DNA of 20,000 nt from an uncultured virus (IMG/VR IMGVR_UViG_3300013108_000147) (taxonomy: Duplodnaviria > Heunggongvirae > Uroviricota > Caudoviricetes > Crassvirales): IMG/VR virus record IMGVR_UViG_3300013108_000147; one strand, written 5' to 3'. Position numbers and translations under genes: made by a program. This document shows positions 2,920 to 16,641 of this stretch, in pieces. Numbering within the stretch: the first letter of the stretch is position 1; the number at the start of each line of letters is the position of its first letter. The notes below the pieces were generated by a model. The model was not told where the DNA came from. It made no database searches and saw only the letters and a list, made by a program, of their open reading frames with translations.

Positions 2920-3795
2920 TTAATTATATTTTTTGTTATACCAAGCTAACTTGTTTAAATCTAGCTTAGCGTTATTAGACTTCATGCTTCCTCCGTTTAT
3001 AAACAGTTTGATTGCTTTTTCTTTGTTTATAATGTTATTGGATTTGTTGTCTTCCTTAGGTGACCAACCTAGTCTAAGTATGTAGTTGAGTAGTGCGTCA
3101 TTACTGATGTTGCTTAAGTCTATCTCATCGGAATCTCTCTTAGACAACTTCTTTCCTGAACTGTGGCATACTAAACCTACGTGTGTAAATTTAGGTAAAT
3201 CTTTTTCAATTACAAAACTTTCGTTCAATAATTTCCAAATTAATGTTTGTTTATACGTATTAGATATGTGGTCTACTCCGCGAACTATCCACGTTACATC
3301 TTCATCGTAGTCGTCTACTGTAGATGCAAAGTTGTATGCCGGTGAGCCGTCAGACTTCATTATAACTTGTTCTGAGGCGTACCCTGCAATTTGGTCGTTA
3401 GCTTTCTTTAAACCTGTCAAAGTATCTGTCCAACTACAAGCGTCAACTTTAGTGGTTCCGTCGTAAAGTTCGTAACCTTTATTAAGTCTTATACATCCGT
3501 CATCTTCGATAGCCATACCTAATTCTACAAGTTGATTAGCTACTTCTCTATATCTGCCAAACCTCTCAGACTGCTTGAAAGTCTTGTCGTAGTCTAGACC
3601 AAGCCGTGATAGTGAATCAAATATGGGTTGTATAAGTTCCTCTCTACTACGTGTTAAGTCAGTGTCATCAACACGGACTATAAACTTAGAGTTTGTGTCT
3701 TGCTTAGATATAAGCCAATTGTGGTAAGCTGTTCTAAGTGTACCTATGTGTAACATACCAGTAGGTGATGGTGCTATTCTAACTATTTCTGCCAT
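2920..3795 (-). CDS. Glutamyl-tRNA synthetase catalytic-domain-only protein (GluRS/GluQ-RS-like, 291 aa)
   Basis: RIAPSPTGMLHIG (HIGH), RVDDTD, QSER, YNFASTVDD, IVRGVDH, KKLSKRD (KMSKS), NYILRLGWS, LDLNKLAWYN, then stop; the C-terminal anticodon-binding domains are absent. Confidence 0.92.
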   Translation of the reverse strand: MAEIVRIAPSPTGMLHIGTLRTAYHNWLISKQDTNSKFIVRVDDTDLTRSREELIQPIFDSLSRLGLDYDKTFKQSERFGRYREVANQLVELGMAIEDDGCIRLNKGYELYDGTTKVDACSWTDTLTGLKKANDQIAGYASEQVIMKSDGSPAYNFASTVDDYDEDVTWIVRGVDHISNTYKQTLIWKLLNESFVIEKDLPKFTHVGLVCHSSGKKLSKRDSDEIDLSNISNDALLNYILRLGWSPKEDNKSNNIINKEKAIKLFINGGSMKSNNAKLDLNKLAWYNKKYN

Positions 3796-4262: not shown

Positions 4263-4460
4263 TTACCACCCATAAGAGTTGTACATTTTTACTATATCCT
4301 CTCTTGTTATAGTTGTGTCTTCCATAAATTCACCATAACCAAACATTTTGTGTTCATAGTGAAATTTTTGTGACTTAGATAATTTATTCCACCACTTAAT
4401 AGCTTTATTACGTGTGGTAACACCACCTAAATTTAATTTATTCTCTTCGTTCATAAACAT
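4263..4460 (-). CDS. Cassette-associated hypothetical protein
   Basis: ORF track; starts inside attC-like element 4414-4482; its TAA stop lies in the GTTA core at 4262. Confidence 0.65.
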   Translation of the reverse strand: MFMNEENKLNLGGVTTRNKAIKWWNKLSKSQKFHYEHKMFGYGEFMEDTTITREDIVKMYNSYGW

Positions 4461-4486
4461 AATTTTAGCTTAACCGTTGTAAGTAA

Positions 4487-4780
4487 TTAAAGGTTCATTT
4501 CTTTTATTTTCATATAAACCATCATTAGTTCAAACAAACTATAACTTGTTTTCTTATAAAGGTATATATTTTCTCCTTGTACGCTTACATACTTTTCACA
4601 CCAATCATCAAAGGTCAGTTCCTTTTTGCTCTTTAACTCCGTACAACAATGTGTATAATTAATAGCTTCTATATCGTTCATTAAACAAGCTACTGTTTTA
4701 ATTGTTTTTTTGTCTGCATCAGCTTTTTCTATGTAAAAATCTATTACTCTTTGCAATATCTGTTTCTTATAATTATCCAT
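4487..4780 (-). CDS. Cassette-associated hypothetical protein
   Basis: ORF track; N-terminal half is encoded in the loop of attC-like element 4641-4835 and reads through the arm as INYTHCC. Confidence 0.65.
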   Translation of the reverse strand: MDNYKKQILQRVIDFYIEKADADKKTIKTVACLMNDIEAINYTHCCTELKSKKELTFDDWCEKYVSVQGENIYLYKKTSYSLFELMMVYMKIKEMNL

Positions 4781-5078: not shown

Positions 5079-5288
5079 TTAGCCACAATTAACAGGTTGC
5101 TCTTTTGCCATTGTAGCGTTTTCTAAAATACTTATAGCTTGGTTTAGTTCTGAGATAGCATCTAAATCAGCATCAGTATCGGGGCAAGGTGCATCTATCT
5201 TACAGTTTCTTTTTATAAAACTATTTTCTATAAACGTATCCTTTGCTTTTTCTCGTTGTTCTTTTAGTTGTTGAATAATTCTTTCCAT
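5079..5288 (-). CDS. Cassette-associated hypothetical protein (MERIIQQLKEQ...)
   Basis: ORF track gives 5357 as the longest start; ATG at 5288 lies inside the cassette; stop in GTTA core at 5078. Confidence 0.6.
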   Translation of the reverse strand: MERIIQQLKEQREKAKDTFIENSFIKRNCKIDAPCPDTDADLDAISELNQAISILENATMAKEQPVNCG

Positions 5289-5399
5289 AATTAAATTAAC
5301 TGTGGCTAACACAAAAGATAGTGAATAGCCGATTAAACATTTGTTTTTCATAGCCAAGTTTAAGGTGTCGGCTACTCACCATATTCAAGCACGTTGTAG

Positions 5400-12089: not shown

Positions 12090-12329
12090 TCATACTTTTG
12101 GTACGTATTGAGTTATATTTCTATCGTCTACATAAATGTCTAGTGGCACATGCCCTGTAACTTCAACCATAACGATTTCTACTGCGTCGCTAGGTATGTC
12201 TACAACTGTTTCAAATTCTGCAGTTGCAAGGTCGTTTGCGCAAACATTGTTAATAAAATGATTTCCACCGTGGTCTACTCGGTTCTTGTTTCCGTTTGCG
12301 TCTGTCCAAACTTGATTAAAATATCCCAT
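12090..12329 (-). CDS. Hypothetical protein
   Basis: ORF track; AT-rich leader. Confidence 0.7.
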   Translation of the reverse strand: MGYFNQVWTDANGNKNRVDHGGNHFINNVCANDLATAEFETVVDIPSDAVEIVMVEVTGHVPLDIYVDDRNITQYVPKV

Positions 12330-12358
12330 TTTCTATTTGATTTTAAGGGTTAAACTTG

Positions 12359-12438
12359 TACCCGCAGTGTGATTCGAACACACGTCTAAACATCTGTGTA
12401 TCATAGATGAATTGTCCTAACCTCTAGACGATGCGGGC
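12359..12438 (-). tRNA. tRNA-Glu-scaffold tRNA-like RNA with aberrant 25-nt anticodon arm (copy 1)
   Basis: GCCCGCA/TGCGGGT acceptor stem, TC-GTCTAGAGGTTAGGAC-A D arm, AGAC variable loop, GTGTG-TTCGAAT-CACAC T arm; no canonical anticodon loop, no encoded CCA. Confidence 0.8.
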
Positions 12439-12451
12439 GCACTTTAATTAT

Positions 12452-12883
12452 TTATATTAAGCTATTACGTAGCTTATCTATAAACGATTCAACCTCATTG
12501 GATTGTTTTTCTATTTCGTCACTCCATACCTTTGCTAGATGAATAGAAAGGATTTGATTTTCTTTTAAAACACGTTCTTTTGTCCAAATATTTTCAGTAC
12601 CAAACCAAACAGTGTCCCATCCTACTACCCACATGTCCTCCATGTCTGCAACCTCTTCCCATCCTATAATATCGTCTGAGTTTTTAGAGAATGTAAGATT
12701 AACATGAGCATGGTGTTCTAACTTCTTATTTATCTCACCATATCCTAAACCGAAGTACGGATGTCTTCTTGGTAGTGCAACATATCCGTTTCCCCAACCT
12801 CCTAACCCTTGTGGAGTCCAAGTGTTTTCTTTTAAAAATGCTTTCATGATATTTATATTAAATTTGTTTATTATCTCAGCCAT
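12452..12883 (-). CDS. Conserved phage hypothetical protein (NGYVALP..HP...LTF...WVVGWD family)
   Basis: ORF track; motif pattern recalled from phage proteins. Confidence 0.75.
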   Translation of the reverse strand: MAEIINKFNINIMKAFLKENTWTPQGLGGWGNGYVALPRRHPYFGLGYGEINKKLEHHAHVNLTFSKNSDDIIGWEEVADMEDMWVVGWDTVWFGTENIWTKERVLKENQILSIHLAKVWSDEIEKQSNEVESFIDKLRNSLI

Positions 12884-13113
12884 CTGTTCAATTTTAAAGC
12901 TATTTTATATCTTAAAGTATTGCCGTGTTTTGCACGATTGATAGTGAACGCTATCTTATAGATTTGATAACCCACGACCATAGCAGTTAAGCCTACAGTT
13001 TTAACTACTACAAATGTTTGTAGGTTAAAGCCATTAGTTTGTTCTGCTAACACTAAGCATAGCCCTGCCATTATAAGCAAAGCTGATATGCTAAAAGTTA
13101 ATATGTGTCTCAT
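12871..13113 (-). CDS. Two-TM membrane protein
   Basis: ORF track; two hydrophobic helices, basic C-terminus. Confidence 0.7.
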   Translation of the reverse strand: MRHILTFSISALLIMAGLCLVLAEQTNGFNLQTFVVVKTVGLTAMVVGYQIYKIAFTINRAKHGNTLRYKIALKLNRWLR

Positions 13114-13115
13114 GA

Positions 13116-13268
13116 TTATATTAGTTTTAATTGCCTTTGCATTTCTTTATAGCGCATAATATCCCACGCTTTTTTATAGCCTATGTTATGTAATTGCATT
13201 AATTTATGCACCATTTTTTCTTCGATAGACTGCACTCGCATACGTCTACGTTTTGGTTTATTTGCCAT
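13116..13268 (-). CDS. Small basic protein (50 aa, MANKPKRRRMRVQSIEEK...)
   Basis: Manually translated; AT-rich leader, abuts next gene. Confidence 0.6.
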   Translation of the reverse strand: MANKPKRRRMRVQSIEEKMVHKLMQLHNIGYKKAWDIMRYKEMQRQLKLI

Positions 13269-13291
13269 TTTTATTTAATTTAATTGATTTG

Positions 13292-13371
13292 CACCCATAG
13301 ACAGATTCGAACTGCCGTCTATACACCGCGACGATTTTAGTGTATTGTCCTAGCCACTAGACGATATGGGC
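13292..13371 (-). tRNA. tRNA-Glu-scaffold tRNA-like RNA with aberrant 25-nt anticodon arm (copy 2)
   Basis: GCCCATA/TATGGGT acceptor stem, TC-GTCTAGTGGCTAGGAC-A D arm, ATACAC-13nt-GTGTAT arm, AGAC, GGCAG-TTCGAAT-CTGTC T arm. Confidence 0.8.
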
Positions 13372-13375
13372 ATGA

Positions 13376-13408
13376 TATAAAAAGCCCTACACTTTTACAT
13401 GTAGGGCT
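13376..13408 (-). terminator. Terminator-like hairpin between Rho-N gene and tRNA-like copy 2
   Basis: AGCCCTACA-8nt-TGTAGGGCT (13383-13408) running into a T-run on minus strand. Confidence 0.6.
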
Positions 13409-13438
13409 GTGAGGGATATGGATTGAGGCAAAAAAGGT

Positions 13439-13861
13439 TTATGCCGTTACTAAAGCTATTAATTCAGCTTTTTTCATCTTTGAAAATTTGGTTTTACCTT
13501 GTTTTTTAGCTACCTCTTTAAGCTGCGCTACGTTCATCTTCTCAATTGGAGTTAATGTAGGTGCAGTATCAGATAAATTCGCAGCGCTTTTAATAGCCTT
13601 GTGTATTGCTTGTAACACAAAGAATGGGCTGTAATTTCCTGCCTTTGAAACTCGCACGTTCTCCTTGAATGTAGCGTAAACATCGTTGTTTTCTCTAATC
13701 TCACTCAATATTTGAATGTATTGCGTGCTAAGCTCTATTTCATCTCTAAAAAGCCACAGTATTTTTACTGCACCTCCTAATGATTTGCACTCTCGTTTTA
13801 ACGCCTTGTTAGTGTTTAAAACGTTCATTTTGTAAGCTGAAATTTTGTTTGATTTTGCCAT
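13439..13861 (-). CDS. Protein with C-terminal Rho termination factor N-terminal (HeH-like) nucleic-acid-binding domain
   Basis: IEKMNVAQLKEVAKKQGKTKFSKMKKAELIALV matches the Rho_N consensus. Confidence 0.8.
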   Translation of the reverse strand: MAKSNKISAYKMNVLNTNKALKRECKSLGGAVKILWLFRDEIELSTQYIQILSEIRENNDVYATFKENVRVSKAGNYSPFFVLQAIHKAIKSAANLSDTAPTLTPIEKMNVAQLKEVAKKQGKTKFSKMKKAELIALVTA

Positions 13862-13903
13862 AATTTAAAAATTTAATTATTGTTTATTGATTTTAATTAA
13901 TAG

Positions 13904-14604
13904 ATGCCCATGACAATATGCACTACGTGTCATGGGCTATTGATATGTACCACTTTTGTGGATTTCACGCACTGGTTTACTGCGCTTATGTAAATATATG
14001 TATACGGATTTATTCCGTTGGTGTAACTTAATAAAATGTTGGGTTTTTTTGAGCCTTGAAATATACACGTTAGTACCACAGCTATTTTATTGTACTTTTG
14101 ATAACTCATTACCTAGAGATAAAACCCGTCTGAAAAATGTTGGCGTATCGCTGACTAATGTATATGCAGGTTAGTTTCATACCTTTCCTGCCAACCACTC
14201 GAATAATCACGCTAGGGTATTTTACTCCCATTGTCACGCAGTGGCAACCTTTTTACACCTTTACGGTGCCCTATATGCGTTCACGCTTCTCACGCCCAAC
14301 TGATAGGTTTTAATTCGTTTCAGTAAGGATTCTACTCACTTTGCGCTATAATAGTAGTTTAACGTGACTAAACTCGCCATACGATTCACCCAATGCGCTG
14401 CACTCCTAATGCTTGACCATACCTGTGCTTACAGGGCATTTCACCCTTATTATATGCTTACACCTTTGTGCTTAGCATACCTGCTGAATTGCAGTACACG
14501 TGTAGAATTGCCATTCTACCATGGCGCCATTGTGGCTCCAAAACTACTTCGCTACCTAGTAACAAAGTTTTAAAATCATGTTGAAATCGTTATTTCGTTT
14601 CAAC
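13904..14604 (-). ncRNA. Candidate large structured non-coding RNA / leader (~700 nt)
   Basis: No minus-strand ORF of 60 aa or more; many hairpins; promoter directly upstream; closing 10-bp hairpin at 13906-13937. Confidence 0.5.
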
Positions 14605-14608
14605 AGTA

Positions 14609-14616
14609 CAAACATA
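14609..14616 (-). promoter_or_regulatory. Bacteroidota -7 promoter element (TAnnTTTG) driving leftward transcription
   Basis: Minus strand TATGTTTGTACTGTTG; near-identical TATATTTGTACTGTTG at 16911 on plus strand. Confidence 0.65.
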
Positions 14617-14635
14617 CGTGGCATTTTTGACATAG

Positions 14636-15939
14636 TAAAATCCTGATAATCAAGCAGTTAGAAATTAAAGTGTTGATAATCAGACAGTTAGCTAAGTAGC
14701 TGAGTATCAAGGACTTAAGCAAAATGCCTTCTCGGTTAAAGCGCTGAGTATCAGGTAGTTAGCTTGTTTGTAATCGCCGTTTTTCCCAAACTGAAAACCT
14801 AGAGTAAAAAAAATTCAAAAAAAATTAAAAAGGGCTTATAAGTAACTGATATTCAAGTAGTTACAAGCAAAAAAAATTTTAAAATTAGCTTTAAAGTTAA
14901 AAGGTTGATAATCAAGCAGTTATAAAATCGAGTTTGTAAGTAGCTGAGTATCAATAAGTTATAAATTTAAAAAATTACGTTTGTAAGTATCTGAGAATCA
15001 AGTAGTTAGAGTAAGTAGTTGATAATGAGGCAGTTACGTTAAAGTGTTGATACTCAAGTAGTTAGATTAAAACGTAGTTAAAAGTTAAAGCGCTGAAAAT
15101 CAGGTAGTTAAGTTTTGGCTAGGTAGCAGTTAAACTAAAGTACTGATACTCAAGGGTTTAGGTACAAAGAGTGTTTGTAAGTAGCTGAGGTTCAGGCAGT
15201 TACGATTCTGGCTCATAAGGTAGATTAAAGGTAAAACGTTGATAATGAGGCAGTTACGGCTAAGTAGCTGAGTATCAGGCGCTTACACCGGCACCGAGAA
15301 TTAAATAGTCGTAACTATCTGAAAGTCAGGCAATTAGGCGTAACTATCTGAGAATCAGGCGCTTACACTGGCACCGAGACTTAAATAGGCGTAACTATCT
15401 GAGTATCAGGCGCTTACACCGGCAAGCATATTTAAGTAGTTGTAACTATCTGAGAATCAGGTAATTAGACGTAACTAATTGATAATGAGGCAGTTAGATT
15501 AACTCTTAAAGTATATGGAATTCGCGCGCGCGTAAAGAGCGTAACTATCTGAGAATGAAGCAGTTAGACGTAACTAATTGATAATGAGGCAGTTACGGTA
15601 GAGTGGGTGAATTGAGTGGGTAAATAATTGATAATGAGGCAGTTACGGGTAAGTGTTTGATAGTCAAATGATTAGAGTATAAGTAGTTAATAGTAATATA
15701 TAAGCCTGAGTATCAAGCAGTTAGAATAAAAAACCTACAATACATAACTGTTAAGCGCCTGATTGTCAAGGTGTTAAGTTTGTTAAGCTAGTGTTTAACA
15801 GATTTTACAGATACATTAGACAAAAGATGTAACTATCTGAGTATCAGCGATTTAGACTAGTGTTTTAGGGCATTTCAATAAATAAGTTATTAAAAAAGTC
15901 AAAAAATTTGCTCGTAAAAGCCTGAAAATCAAGCCCGTA
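14636..15939. repeat. Array of ~28 quasi-palindromic 25-bp repeats TAA-N5-TGA-N3-T(C/G)A-N5-TTA (IHF-consensus-like)
   Basis: Copies counted by eye from 14636 to 15915; right half fits WATCARNNNNTTR in most copies. Confidence 0.9.
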
Positions 15940-16032
15940 CGCCTAAAAAAATCGGTTTTCCTTTTCAAAAAATTCCCGTTCCATTTATGTAATACCTTTG
16001 TACCTAGTCCGTCCTCAATAATTTCAAATTGG

Positions 16033-16064
16033 CTTGCATATGTGGAAAATATTTCGTATATTGC
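16033..16064 (+). promoter_or_regulatory. Rightward promoter CTTG-N20-TATATTGC
   Basis: Same geometry as 173-204 and 18108-18139; additional TACCTTTG -7 box at 15993-16000. Confidence 0.65.
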
Positions 16065-16103
16065 AAAGACAGGAAAGTTACAACTAATTAAAATTACCGT
16101 AAA

Positions 16104-16265
16104 ATGGGCGTTAAAACACCAAAAAATGAGAAAAATACAGAGGTTTCGGCATACCCGTGCTTTACTGAGGAAGCTATAACTATCACTACTTCCTTCAAAG
16201 TACCCGTACCCGTTACATACAGGGTTGCTACGCCTCGCAAAATAAATAAAAGTGACGACAACTAA
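16104..16265 (+). CDS. Possible small protein (53 aa, MGVKTPKNEK...)
   Basis: Manually translated; downstream of promoter. Confidence 0.35.
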   Translation: MGVKTPKNEKNTEVSAYPCFTEEAITITTSFKVPVPVTYRVATPRKINKSDDN

Positions 16266-16293
16266 GTTTCAAATAATTTAAAGCCAAATAAGG

Positions 16294-16641
16294 GTGAAAA
16301 CACAAAAAGAGACAGAGCAGAAAATAAATCACGGCCTAAGTAATGAATTATACACATTGTTGTGCGCCGTTGATTTTAAGCCGAAGTCAATGGCTTTTTA
16401 TAATAGTAGACAAAAACCTGATGGAAGTTGGGATAACTTTTTAGACCACGTTGACTGTATGCAAAAGTACGTTAAAAACCATATGGGCGGAAACTATGGA
16501 TTAGCTGACGAATATCTAATAGTAAAGCACGATGGGATATTTAATTTTCGATACTTTGGCGACTCTTCTGCTAAAATAGAAAAGATTGCAGAAGCAGATA
16601 AGGAAAGTGTTTTGCAGTATTGTGTACTAAAATCGTTGTAA
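16294..16641 (+). CDS. Hypothetical protein crossing an orphan attC-like half-site (NELYTLLCAV)
   Basis: ORF track (GTG start); 18-nt identity to the reverse complement of the attC-like arm at 4644-4661. Confidence 0.7.
   Translation: MKTQKETEQKINHGLSNELYTLLCAVDFKPKSMAFYNSRQKPDGSWDNFLDHVDCMQKYVKNHMGGNYGLADEYLIVKHDGIFNFRYFGDSSAKIEKIAEADKESVLQYCVLKSL

Follow-up and report, generated by a model that had tools for sequence, protein, structure and literature searches.

We describe a large structured RNA, in our reading a member of a new family of such phage RNAs that extends to cultured phages, encoded on the minus strand of a 20,000-nucleotide (nt) stretch of DNA from an uncultured virus (IMG/VR IMGVR_UViG_3300013108_000147; hereafter the window). 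The RNA spans positions 13904-14606, ahead of a gene for a protein of 140 amino acids (aa), and that this segment encodes a real structured RNA on the minus strand is in our judgement close to certain. The family comprises the window, two metagenome relatives (contigs L058 and L059) and the cultured phages phi38:1 and Calle; a TARA contig (L060) has what is probably a reduced form. Comparison of these sequences establishes a fold, a core built around a four-way junction, a conserved 3' hairpin, and a layout in which promoter, RNA, 140-aa gene and terminator follow one another, with a copy of the hairpin standing in for the terminator in L059. The account that we favor, and consider reasonably probable, is that of an RNA of about 700 nt and of an undescribed family, which accumulates as a stable RNA, permits partial read-through into the gene behind it, and has a role of its own as RNA. 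Few large structured RNAs of unassigned function exist, and every one of them has led to new RNA biology; as phi38:1 and Calle are in culture, can be grown on a laboratory host and have had their infection time courses published, experiments on this one are feasible.

An earlier note, made by reading the sequence by itself, had proposed a large structured minus-strand RNA at 13904-14604 for which no family could be assigned; the fold, the covariation, the phi38:1 transcript contigs and the null result in Rfam all support this proposal. Its description of the region as poor in open reading frames (ORFs) was borne out: the longest ORFs within 13904-14604 measure 42-72 aa (translation table 11), and none of the six of at least 42 aa is intact in both L058 and L059. 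Coding under an alternative genetic code was considered and ruled out, given that no long frame opens with TGA read as tryptophan or with TAG or TAA read as glutamine, and the small ORFs are broken in the relatives. The claim that the region is richer in guanine and cytosine (GC) than the neighboring spacers holds for 14100-14599 (GC 0.41-0.44, against 0.285-0.30 in 13700-13999 and 0.225-0.37 in 14600-15099) but not for 13900-14099, the 3' third of the RNA region, where GC is just 0.35. The minus strand folds to -198.2 kcal/mol, with a z-score of -4.61 against 20 shuffles, compared with -1.65 (20 shuffles) for the plus strand; folding is thus better than that of shuffled sequence on the minus strand only.

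A search of metagenome contigs through the 140-aa neighbor protein returned L058 and L059, whose upstream regions are 86% and 76% identical to the window RNA, together with the TARA contigs L060 and L061, which are the same in sequence and both much more distant. An IMG/VR contig, G001 (L001), is identical over the flagged region and so adds no comparative information. RNAalifold applied to the three-sequence alignment A4 (window, L058 and L059) gave 183 consensus pairs, with 96.9% of cells paired. The covariation is strong: 32 of the 183 pairs are changed on both sides and yet still paired, where 500 shuffles yield 11.1±2.6 such pairs, none of them as many as 32, and a control with slid partners yields 1-3. 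Compensatory pairs (at least one per helix) are present in 14 of the 26 helices. The contrary reading of the region as non-functional spacer, its hairpins arising by chance or acting at the level of DNA only, has in its favor that there is no direct experiment on the window's own phage; we give it almost no credence, because compensatory changes lie far above both controls, folding is strand-asymmetric, G-U and U-G wobbles in the helices would be A-C mismatches on the other strand, and RNA libraries contain the phi38:1 homologue but not the 390 bases that precede its start.

The consensus structure accommodates most of the hairpins that the earlier note had picked out. Nine of the eleven proposed coincide with three-sequence consensus helices (14580-14604, 14502-14519, 14481-14494, 14434-14446, 14256-14268, 14166-14191, 14004-14018, 13950-13961 and 13906-13937), whereas two do not: part of the sequence of a hairpin placed at 14422-14435 pairs with 14496-14499 instead, and the pairing proposed at 14356-14374 is lost in L059. 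From the 5' end, the minus-strand RNA begins with hairpin H1 (helix 2, 14579-14605), in which eight of ten pairs are invariant and two are broken in L058, followed by three hairpins at 14502-14568 (helices 3, 4 and 5, with 1, 1 and 2 pairs changed on both sides). Beyond the core lies a central domain at 14164-14309 (helices 14-20), with 15 double-changed pairs across helices 14, 16, 17, 18 and 20, and then a domain at 14041-14127 closed by GGGUUUU/AAAACCC and holding two inner hairpins (helices 21-23). Helix 23 has three compensatory pairs; six of the seven pairs of helix 21 never vary and one is broken in L059, and because it hardly varies this helix is without covariation support. Two further hairpins occupy 13950-14018, helix 24 (14004-14018), which is invariant, and helix 25 (13950-13961), with two compensatory pairs.

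The part of the RNA that reaches into cultured phages is the core at 14394-14501 (minus strand), which contains the four-way junction (helices 6-9, 14425-14499) with its GGGU-GAAAU-GCCC hairpin, followed by a GUAUGGUCAAGC segment in which a short hairpin occupies 14400-14412. The phage from which the window derives is marine and has as relatives three Cellulophaga podoviruses of about 72-73 kb in the genus Callevirus, namely phi38:1, phi40:1 and Calle: the window's 140-aa protein is 42-44% identical to their counterparts and its 867-aa protein 32-36% identical over 35-41% of its length, and a protein cluster 99% identical to the 140-aa protein is found on a contig of 72,223 bases. A covariance model of the core (R1), built from the window's lineage alone and searched with filters off, matched Calle at L005:5428-5520 (34.3 bits, expectation value (E) 4.7e-7) and phi38:1 at L004:5421-5513 (30.8 bits, E 3.7e-6), both at the syntenic place, with the next best match at E 0.17. 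In the resulting five-sequence alignment, which was fitted to the model and hence leans towards it, compensatory changes are seen at 16 of 29 pairs (0-4 in slid controls), with pairing in 99.2% of cells; the GGGU-GAAAU-GCCC hairpin, for example, becomes CGGU-GAAAU-ACCG across lineages. The GAAAU-loop four-way junction, the end hairpins and the downstream 140-aa gene are thus found together in the window, L058, L059, Calle and phi38:1.

A plain alignment with Calle and phi38:1 shows similarity in islands only, and a model of the central domain (R2, 14164-14309) found no significant match in phi38:1, Calle or L060 (best E 0.25, in Calle), so that this domain appears by these searches to be specific to the window's lineage. 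L060 was not found by the junction models; it shares with the window RNA the sequence of the 5' hairpin, a GUGAAAC-loop hairpin, GUAUGGUAAGC and the 3' hairpin, and is a probable reduced relative. When other phage loci (66 sources, 741 kb in total) were searched with the combined junction model (R3), the family gained no member. Likewise, blastn of the region against a phage collection gave no match; a peptidase gene led to 47 loci of distant relatives, in which blastn and nhmmer gave one chance-level row only. A search of IMG/VR by the neighbor protein returned only Calle, phi38:1 and a near-identical copy of the window's phage; that copy was also the only match to an 18-mer in IMG/VR, and a 22-nt motif had two matches there.

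The RNA corresponds to no described family. Across the 4227 families of Rfam 15, cmscan found no match in the RNA region at gathering score and, even at E<=10, nothing on 12200-16300 or on 746 bases searched alone with the laxest filters. There was no row for GOLLD (RF01998) or ROOL (RF03087) in either the window or the Calle homologue, for which Rfam gave chance-level rows only, and none for RAGATH-14 (RF03145) in the window RNA; ribosomal RNA (rRNA) models did not match the region, the two most conserved loop motifs of which may resemble part of 16S rRNA, ARAGORN found nothing, and the transfer RNA (tRNA) model RF00005 matched only at 13292-13371 and 12359-12438, outside the RNA. It is therefore highly improbable that we are looking at a diverged GOLLD, ROOL, tRNA-like RNA, RNase P RNA, transfer-messenger RNA (tmRNA), intron or RAGATH-14, despite the phage setting near tRNA genes, a cloverleaf-like junction with a GAAAU loop, and a RAGATH-14 match that in another phage locus (L124) precedes the same 3' hairpin. 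The linkers of the window's four-way junction are of a kind that tRNA is not known to have.

The comparison with GOLLD and ROOL made in the earlier note stands as an analogy of kind, not as a family assignment. Like them, the window RNA is several hundred nucleotides long, has many helices, is phage-borne and near tRNA genes, and combines a conserved core with variable parts; it differs in having no sequence or structure match to either, in heading a transcription unit with a protein gene, in ending in a hairpin module common to unrelated phages, and in being found so far only in Callevirus-like phages of Flavobacteriaceae. With RAGATH-14 it shares the arrangement of structured RNA, conserved-loop hairpin and gene, which recurs in L124, but there is no model match and the length and helices differ. 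Strand-specific RNA sequencing of phi38:1 is reported to have revealed six expressed intergenic regions, whose coordinates are given in Supplementary Table S4 and Figure S2 of that study (Howard-Varona et al., 2016; PMC5335546); its accessible text gives no structure, family or homologues for these RNAs, and states that phi38:1 has no RNA polymerase of its own. In the accessible text of the Calle paper (PMC8776804) the terms 'non-coding', 'ncRNA' and 'intergenic' do not occur.

Expression of the RNA is suggested by its promoter and by RNA-library contigs of the phi38:1 homologue. The TAnnTTTG promoter that the earlier note had placed upstream of the RNA is there: a Bacteroidota-type -7 box, TATGTTTG, lies at 14609-14616 on the minus strand and is identical in L058 and L059, and the motif is kept in all lineages, the same position being taken by TACATTTG in phi38:1 and Calle and by TACCTTTG in L060. 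TAnnTTTG by itself is not a rare motif (35 in the window, 27.9±5.2 expected). Directly after the promoter, phi38:1, Calle and L060 have a hairpin at the same place as H1. Part of the corresponding phi38:1 stretch (L072) is contained in eight RNA runs from two studies, four of which (X1, X4, X6 and X7) were compared in detail, all as assembled contigs. The contigs of X1, X6 and X7 share an end at L072:2023, the third base after TACATTTG at 2033-2026, and it is from this start that we place the 5' end of the window RNA at about 14606; its 3' boundary is taken as the base of the conserved hairpin. X6 and X7 each have a single contig on the 2.4 kb (1271-2023 and 1280-2023), which covers the RNA alone and carries at both ends 20-24 non-phage letters that we take to be library adaptor. 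The X1 contig runs from 632 to 2023, from the start of the RNA to just past gp056 (640-1125), the phi38:1 homologue of the 140-aa gene, and so bridges RNA and gene.

Measured from the contig start at L072:2023, the phi38:1 RNA has a length of about 750-830 nt. The X4 contigs cover 1244-2013 and 632-1169; neither the lack of an X4 contig over the hairpin stretch (1170-1243) nor the word depths per contig (1407-3323 in pieces of the RNA, 131 in the piece with gp056) are counted as evidence. The roughly 390 bases upstream of the start (L072:2026-2414) are uncovered in all compared runs, which is a sign against carry-over of DNA and nothing further. RNA libraries of infections do contain the phi38:1 homologue in the form of assembled contigs, which favors the proposal of the earlier note. 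We lean slightly towards a discrete RNA that ends near the 3' hairpin.

The gene behind the RNA occupies 13439-13861 (minus strand). Its homologues in L058, L059, phi38:1 (gp056), Calle and L060 likewise stand behind the RNA, an adjacency that is partly built in, as the lineages were collected through this gene. The 140-aa protein is predicted to be all-helical (AlphaFold2, predicted local distance difference test score 82.7), with a Rho_N/SAP-like C-terminus that is sub-threshold in Pfam and whose last 36 residues overlay the N-terminal helices of Rho; the L060 homologue is without this C-terminus. Pfam and PHROGs gave nothing else, Foldseek found no match to the model at E<=0.001, leaving the N-terminal helical domain without a fold match, and the Atlas returned nothing above 0.77. 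Directly after the gene is an intrinsic terminator (13383-13408, minus strand), a 10-bp stem followed by TTTTTATAT. L058, phi38:1, Calle and L060 have an equivalent terminator behind the gene, which makes five of six lineages with the window included. In L059 a second, identical conserved-loop hairpin takes the terminator's place (L059:2957-3002), 18 nt before the next ORF. Because of this terminator (or second hairpin copy) after the gene and the lack of any TAnnTTTG in the window between the RNA and the ATG of the 140-aa gene, all lineages found appear to have promoter, RNA, gene and terminator joined in a single transcription unit.

Such a unit could also be built around a very long structured 5' leader that acts in cis alone, controlling read-through into the 140-aa gene or its translation. 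The missing internal promoter, the contig of X1 that bridges RNA and gp056, the adjoining of RNA and gene in every lineage found with a terminator after the gene in five of six, and the position of the hairpin 24-75 nt before a start codon in most of 19 loci would all be expected of a leader. We nonetheless think it somewhat unlikely, since the sole contig of X6 and of X7 on the 2.4 kb is the RNA without the gene, a conserved core surrounded by large domains specific to a lineage is what free-standing RNAs typically show, and adjacency to the gene partly reflects how the relatives were collected. Moreover, we know of no cis leader of 700-830 nt, a length well beyond those familiar to us. Whether the stable RNA that we favor also has an independent function in trans we regard as a little short of an even chance.

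In all lineages the RNA ends in a 10-bp stem of unrelated sequence that carries a 12-nt loop close to CGUAGAGAAUAU; in the window this hairpin, with its CUA(U/A) tail, occupies 13899-13937 on the minus strand (stem 13906-13937), with the loop CGUAGUGCAUAU and the tail AUCUAUUAAUU. The earlier note had likened the closing stem to the acceptor stem of a tRNA-like gene downstream. The two do share the start GCCCAU, but this is not conserved and the stems of other lineages are quite different; the resemblance is incidental. A scan of IMG/VR for a hairpin 14-mer gave at least 111 matches, and 16 of the 111 listed have 9-10 uninterrupted flanking pairs, for which chance would provide about 0.02 by our own estimate. 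Among 19 distinct examples, chosen for at least eight of nine pairs, nine of ten pairs are compensatory, 99.5% of cells are paired, and there are 7 G-U and 10 U-G wobbles, which the opposite strand would have as mismatches; in most of the examples the stem is followed by CUA, and in most of the loci the hairpin lies 24-75 nt upstream of a start codon. A degenerate loop pattern occurs once per record in five of five phage records, against none in a reversed control. To judge by this distribution, the 3' hairpin is a module separate from the RNA body, present once per genome in a wide range of unrelated marine phage contigs; it may be an end-forming element, a nut-like site or a translational operator.

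Some of these loci appear to hold further structured RNAs of their own. In L124 (89-1461, minus strand) Rfam matches a Hatchet ribozyme (84 bits), RAGATH-6 (89.6 bits, sub-threshold because the gathering score is 170) and, over its full extent, RAGATH-14 (168.4 bits); RAGATH-14 lies upstream of the conserved-loop hairpin, ending about 46 nt before it, and the Hatchet and RAGATH-6 matches lie just downstream. In six loci (L138, L110, L079, L070, L067 and L068) a boxA-like element stands 12-20 nt after the hairpin. About 300-390 nt free of ORFs then extend to the next start codon in each (L138:1226-1600, L110, L079:885-1189, L070, L067:880-1189 and L068:741-1055), and conserved blocks lie within them, among them TAGCAGGGATGCCGAGA and a closing stem of the form GCCCGTC...GCGGGC; a quick alignment of poor quality gave 20 pairs, of which 8 are compensatory, and these stretches are probably another structured leader RNA.

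Elements resembling boxA also occur near the 5' end of the RNA. In phi38:1, Calle and L060 the sequence behind the 5' hairpin matches the regular expression G[TC]TCTTT[AGT][AG], at a position that is U/A-rich and degenerate in the window (14562-14578, minus strand); the 5' hairpin precedes this position in all lineages, and in the window the conserved-loop hairpin is about 650 nt away from it. In phi38:1 the promoter, first hairpin and boxA-like element are duplicated in tandem (L004:5021-5111 and 5259-5349, 238 nt apart), with a boxA match in both copies and the same upstream element of about 44 nt before each. A 16-mer, GTTCTTTGACATATTG, lies inside the L060 RNA and follows the conserved hairpin in L079 and L070. 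When scanned against one genome per prokaryote species it gave at least 121 matches, which among those listed are nearly all from Bacteroidota, many of them on contigs the size of an rRNA operon (L173-L293). A boxA ahead of 16S was rejected as its identity, with a 16S primer site downstream in 0 of 121 listed loci. Because a 23S 5' motif lies 58-235 nt downstream in 42 of the 70 listed loci with at least 400 nt of downstream sequence, and upstream in none, the 16-mer is, on this genomic context, identified as the spacer boxA of Bacteroidota ribosomal operons. This spacer boxA is highly conserved across Bacteroidota classes, and often has a short hairpin or the 3' end of a tRNA before it.

Bacteroidota phages are thus seen to copy the boxA of host ribosomal operons, and together with the invariant-loop hairpin these copies point to an unstudied form of transcription control in phages that use host RNA polymerase. 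The RNAs of phi38:1, Calle and L060 resemble rrn leaders and lambda nut sites in having a promoter, a hairpin and a boxA-like element at the 5' end, and in L060 and six other phage loci the host boxA 16-mer, exact or close, adjoins the conserved hairpin. The window's lineage differs in being without a recognizable boxA, and the phage hairpin has a loop that is conserved across phages. The boxB loop of ribosomal operons is not known to be conserved in that way. One may speculate that this is a class of RNA made in the manner of host rRNA, with a strong host-type promoter, a leader hairpin, a boxA in the relatives and an end hairpin recognized by protein, and serving as an RNA machine or decoy, an idea that we consider doubtful. 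Equally doubtful is its corollary that the RNA would be present when its neighbors are not yet seen, and we attach as little confidence to the suggestion that it may pair with the helical, presumably nucleic-acid-binding 140-aa protein or soak up host Nus or ribosome-assembly factors during takeover. Were this rRNA-like class real, the conserved-loop hairpin would be a widespread, undescribed control element, nut-like or end-forming, in many marine phages.

Our data suggest a model for the production of the stable RNA that we favor. Host RNA polymerase would start a few bases after the TAnnTTTG box, at about 14606, and many transcripts would end or be cut at or just before the 3' hairpin to yield the stable RNA, while the remainder would read through and allow expression of the 140-aa gene. 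In the lineages of phi38:1 and Calle and of the TARA contig, the host-type boxA after the 5' hairpin may recruit Nus factors so that the long untranslated transcript escapes Rho. We propose that the body of the RNA acts as RNA itself, as a protein-binding scaffold or decoy and not as a leader alone; its size, its conserved core with variable domains and its setting in a phage with tRNA genes resemble those of GOLLD and ROOL.

Several observations weigh against this model. No promoter for the 140-aa gene lies behind the RNA and one contig bridges the two, and therefore a purely cis-acting leader explains the same layout. The 3' hairpin (13906-13937) has no U-tract and was not flagged in the terminator scan that flags 13383-13408; its place before boxA and further leader in six phage loci fits a nut-like or operator role better than that of a terminator. 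The boxA expression was not found in the RNA of the window, L058 or L059, and as a 9-nt pattern it is not rare, occurring five times in the window. Assembled contigs show neither strand, level nor true ends, and the transcripts come only from phi38:1, whose RNA shares just the junction, the ends and synteny with that of the window. As to the fold, most helices are supported by three sequences only, and the consensus was derived from the same sequences on which covariation was scored. A long-range helix of 18 pairs (14395-14416 with 13965-13985) is without covariation support because 15 of its pairs never vary, and local hairpins at 14365-14379 and 14400-14412 covary better and contradict parts of helices 11-12. 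The first of these fits better than the predicted partners, with G-U, U-A and C-G across the three sequences; the Calle and phi38:1 counterparts of the second show covariation between the two phages (GGGC/GCCC against AGGC/GCCU), and L060 has a counterpart as well.

The position of the RNA within the window raises one more explanation. The window's minus-strand genes reach up to 13861 and its plus-strand genes begin at about 16040, and the gap between these divergent blocks is filled by the RNA region and a 1.3-kb repeat array (14640-15930), in which an imperfectly palindromic unit of about 25 nt (TAACTnnCTGAnnATCAGnnAGTTA type) is repeated at least about 40 times; the RNA region itself sits at the minimum of cumulative GC skew. 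An origin transcript that primes or activates DNA replication beside iteron-like repeats, as do ColE1 RNA II and the R-loop origins of T4, would abut such a palindromic array and lie at such a skew minimum between divergent blocks, and ColE1 RNA II is likewise a long folded RNA beside a repeat-rich, origin-like region. We nevertheless find this very unlikely. Transcription leads away from the array, the skew turns at the point where the coding strand changes, and the array is lineage-specific, differing in phi38:1 and L060, whereas the conserved link of the RNA is to its downstream gene; the differences from ColE1 RNA II are accordingly those of direction, of the lack of a conserved repeat link, and of a conserved downstream gene and terminator. 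The same palindrome units of about 25 nt lie upstream of the RNA promoter in L058 and L059, while phi38:1 has only a few short repeats at this position and L060 has unrelated GT-rich repeats. The array could consist of operator, iteron or partition sites.

Further along the minus strand are two 80-nt tRNA-like genes (13292-13371 and 12359-12438), which match the Rfam tRNA model with 50.7 and 41.3 bits and are not called by ARAGORN at default settings. Their acceptor, D arm and T arm are like those of tRNA-Glu and the anticodon loop is enlarged; at similar positions, downstream of the homologue of the 140-aa gene, Calle and phi38:1 have ordinary tRNA-Glu(UUC) genes. No tmRNA was seen in the 20-kb window; among the relatives, L060 has a match to a permuted tmRNA (4416-4635, 57.3 bits) and Calle an annotated tmRNA (L005:12219-12324). 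At 2920-3795 the window encodes a protein of 291 aa that corresponds to the catalytic domain only of a Glu/Gln-tRNA synthetase.

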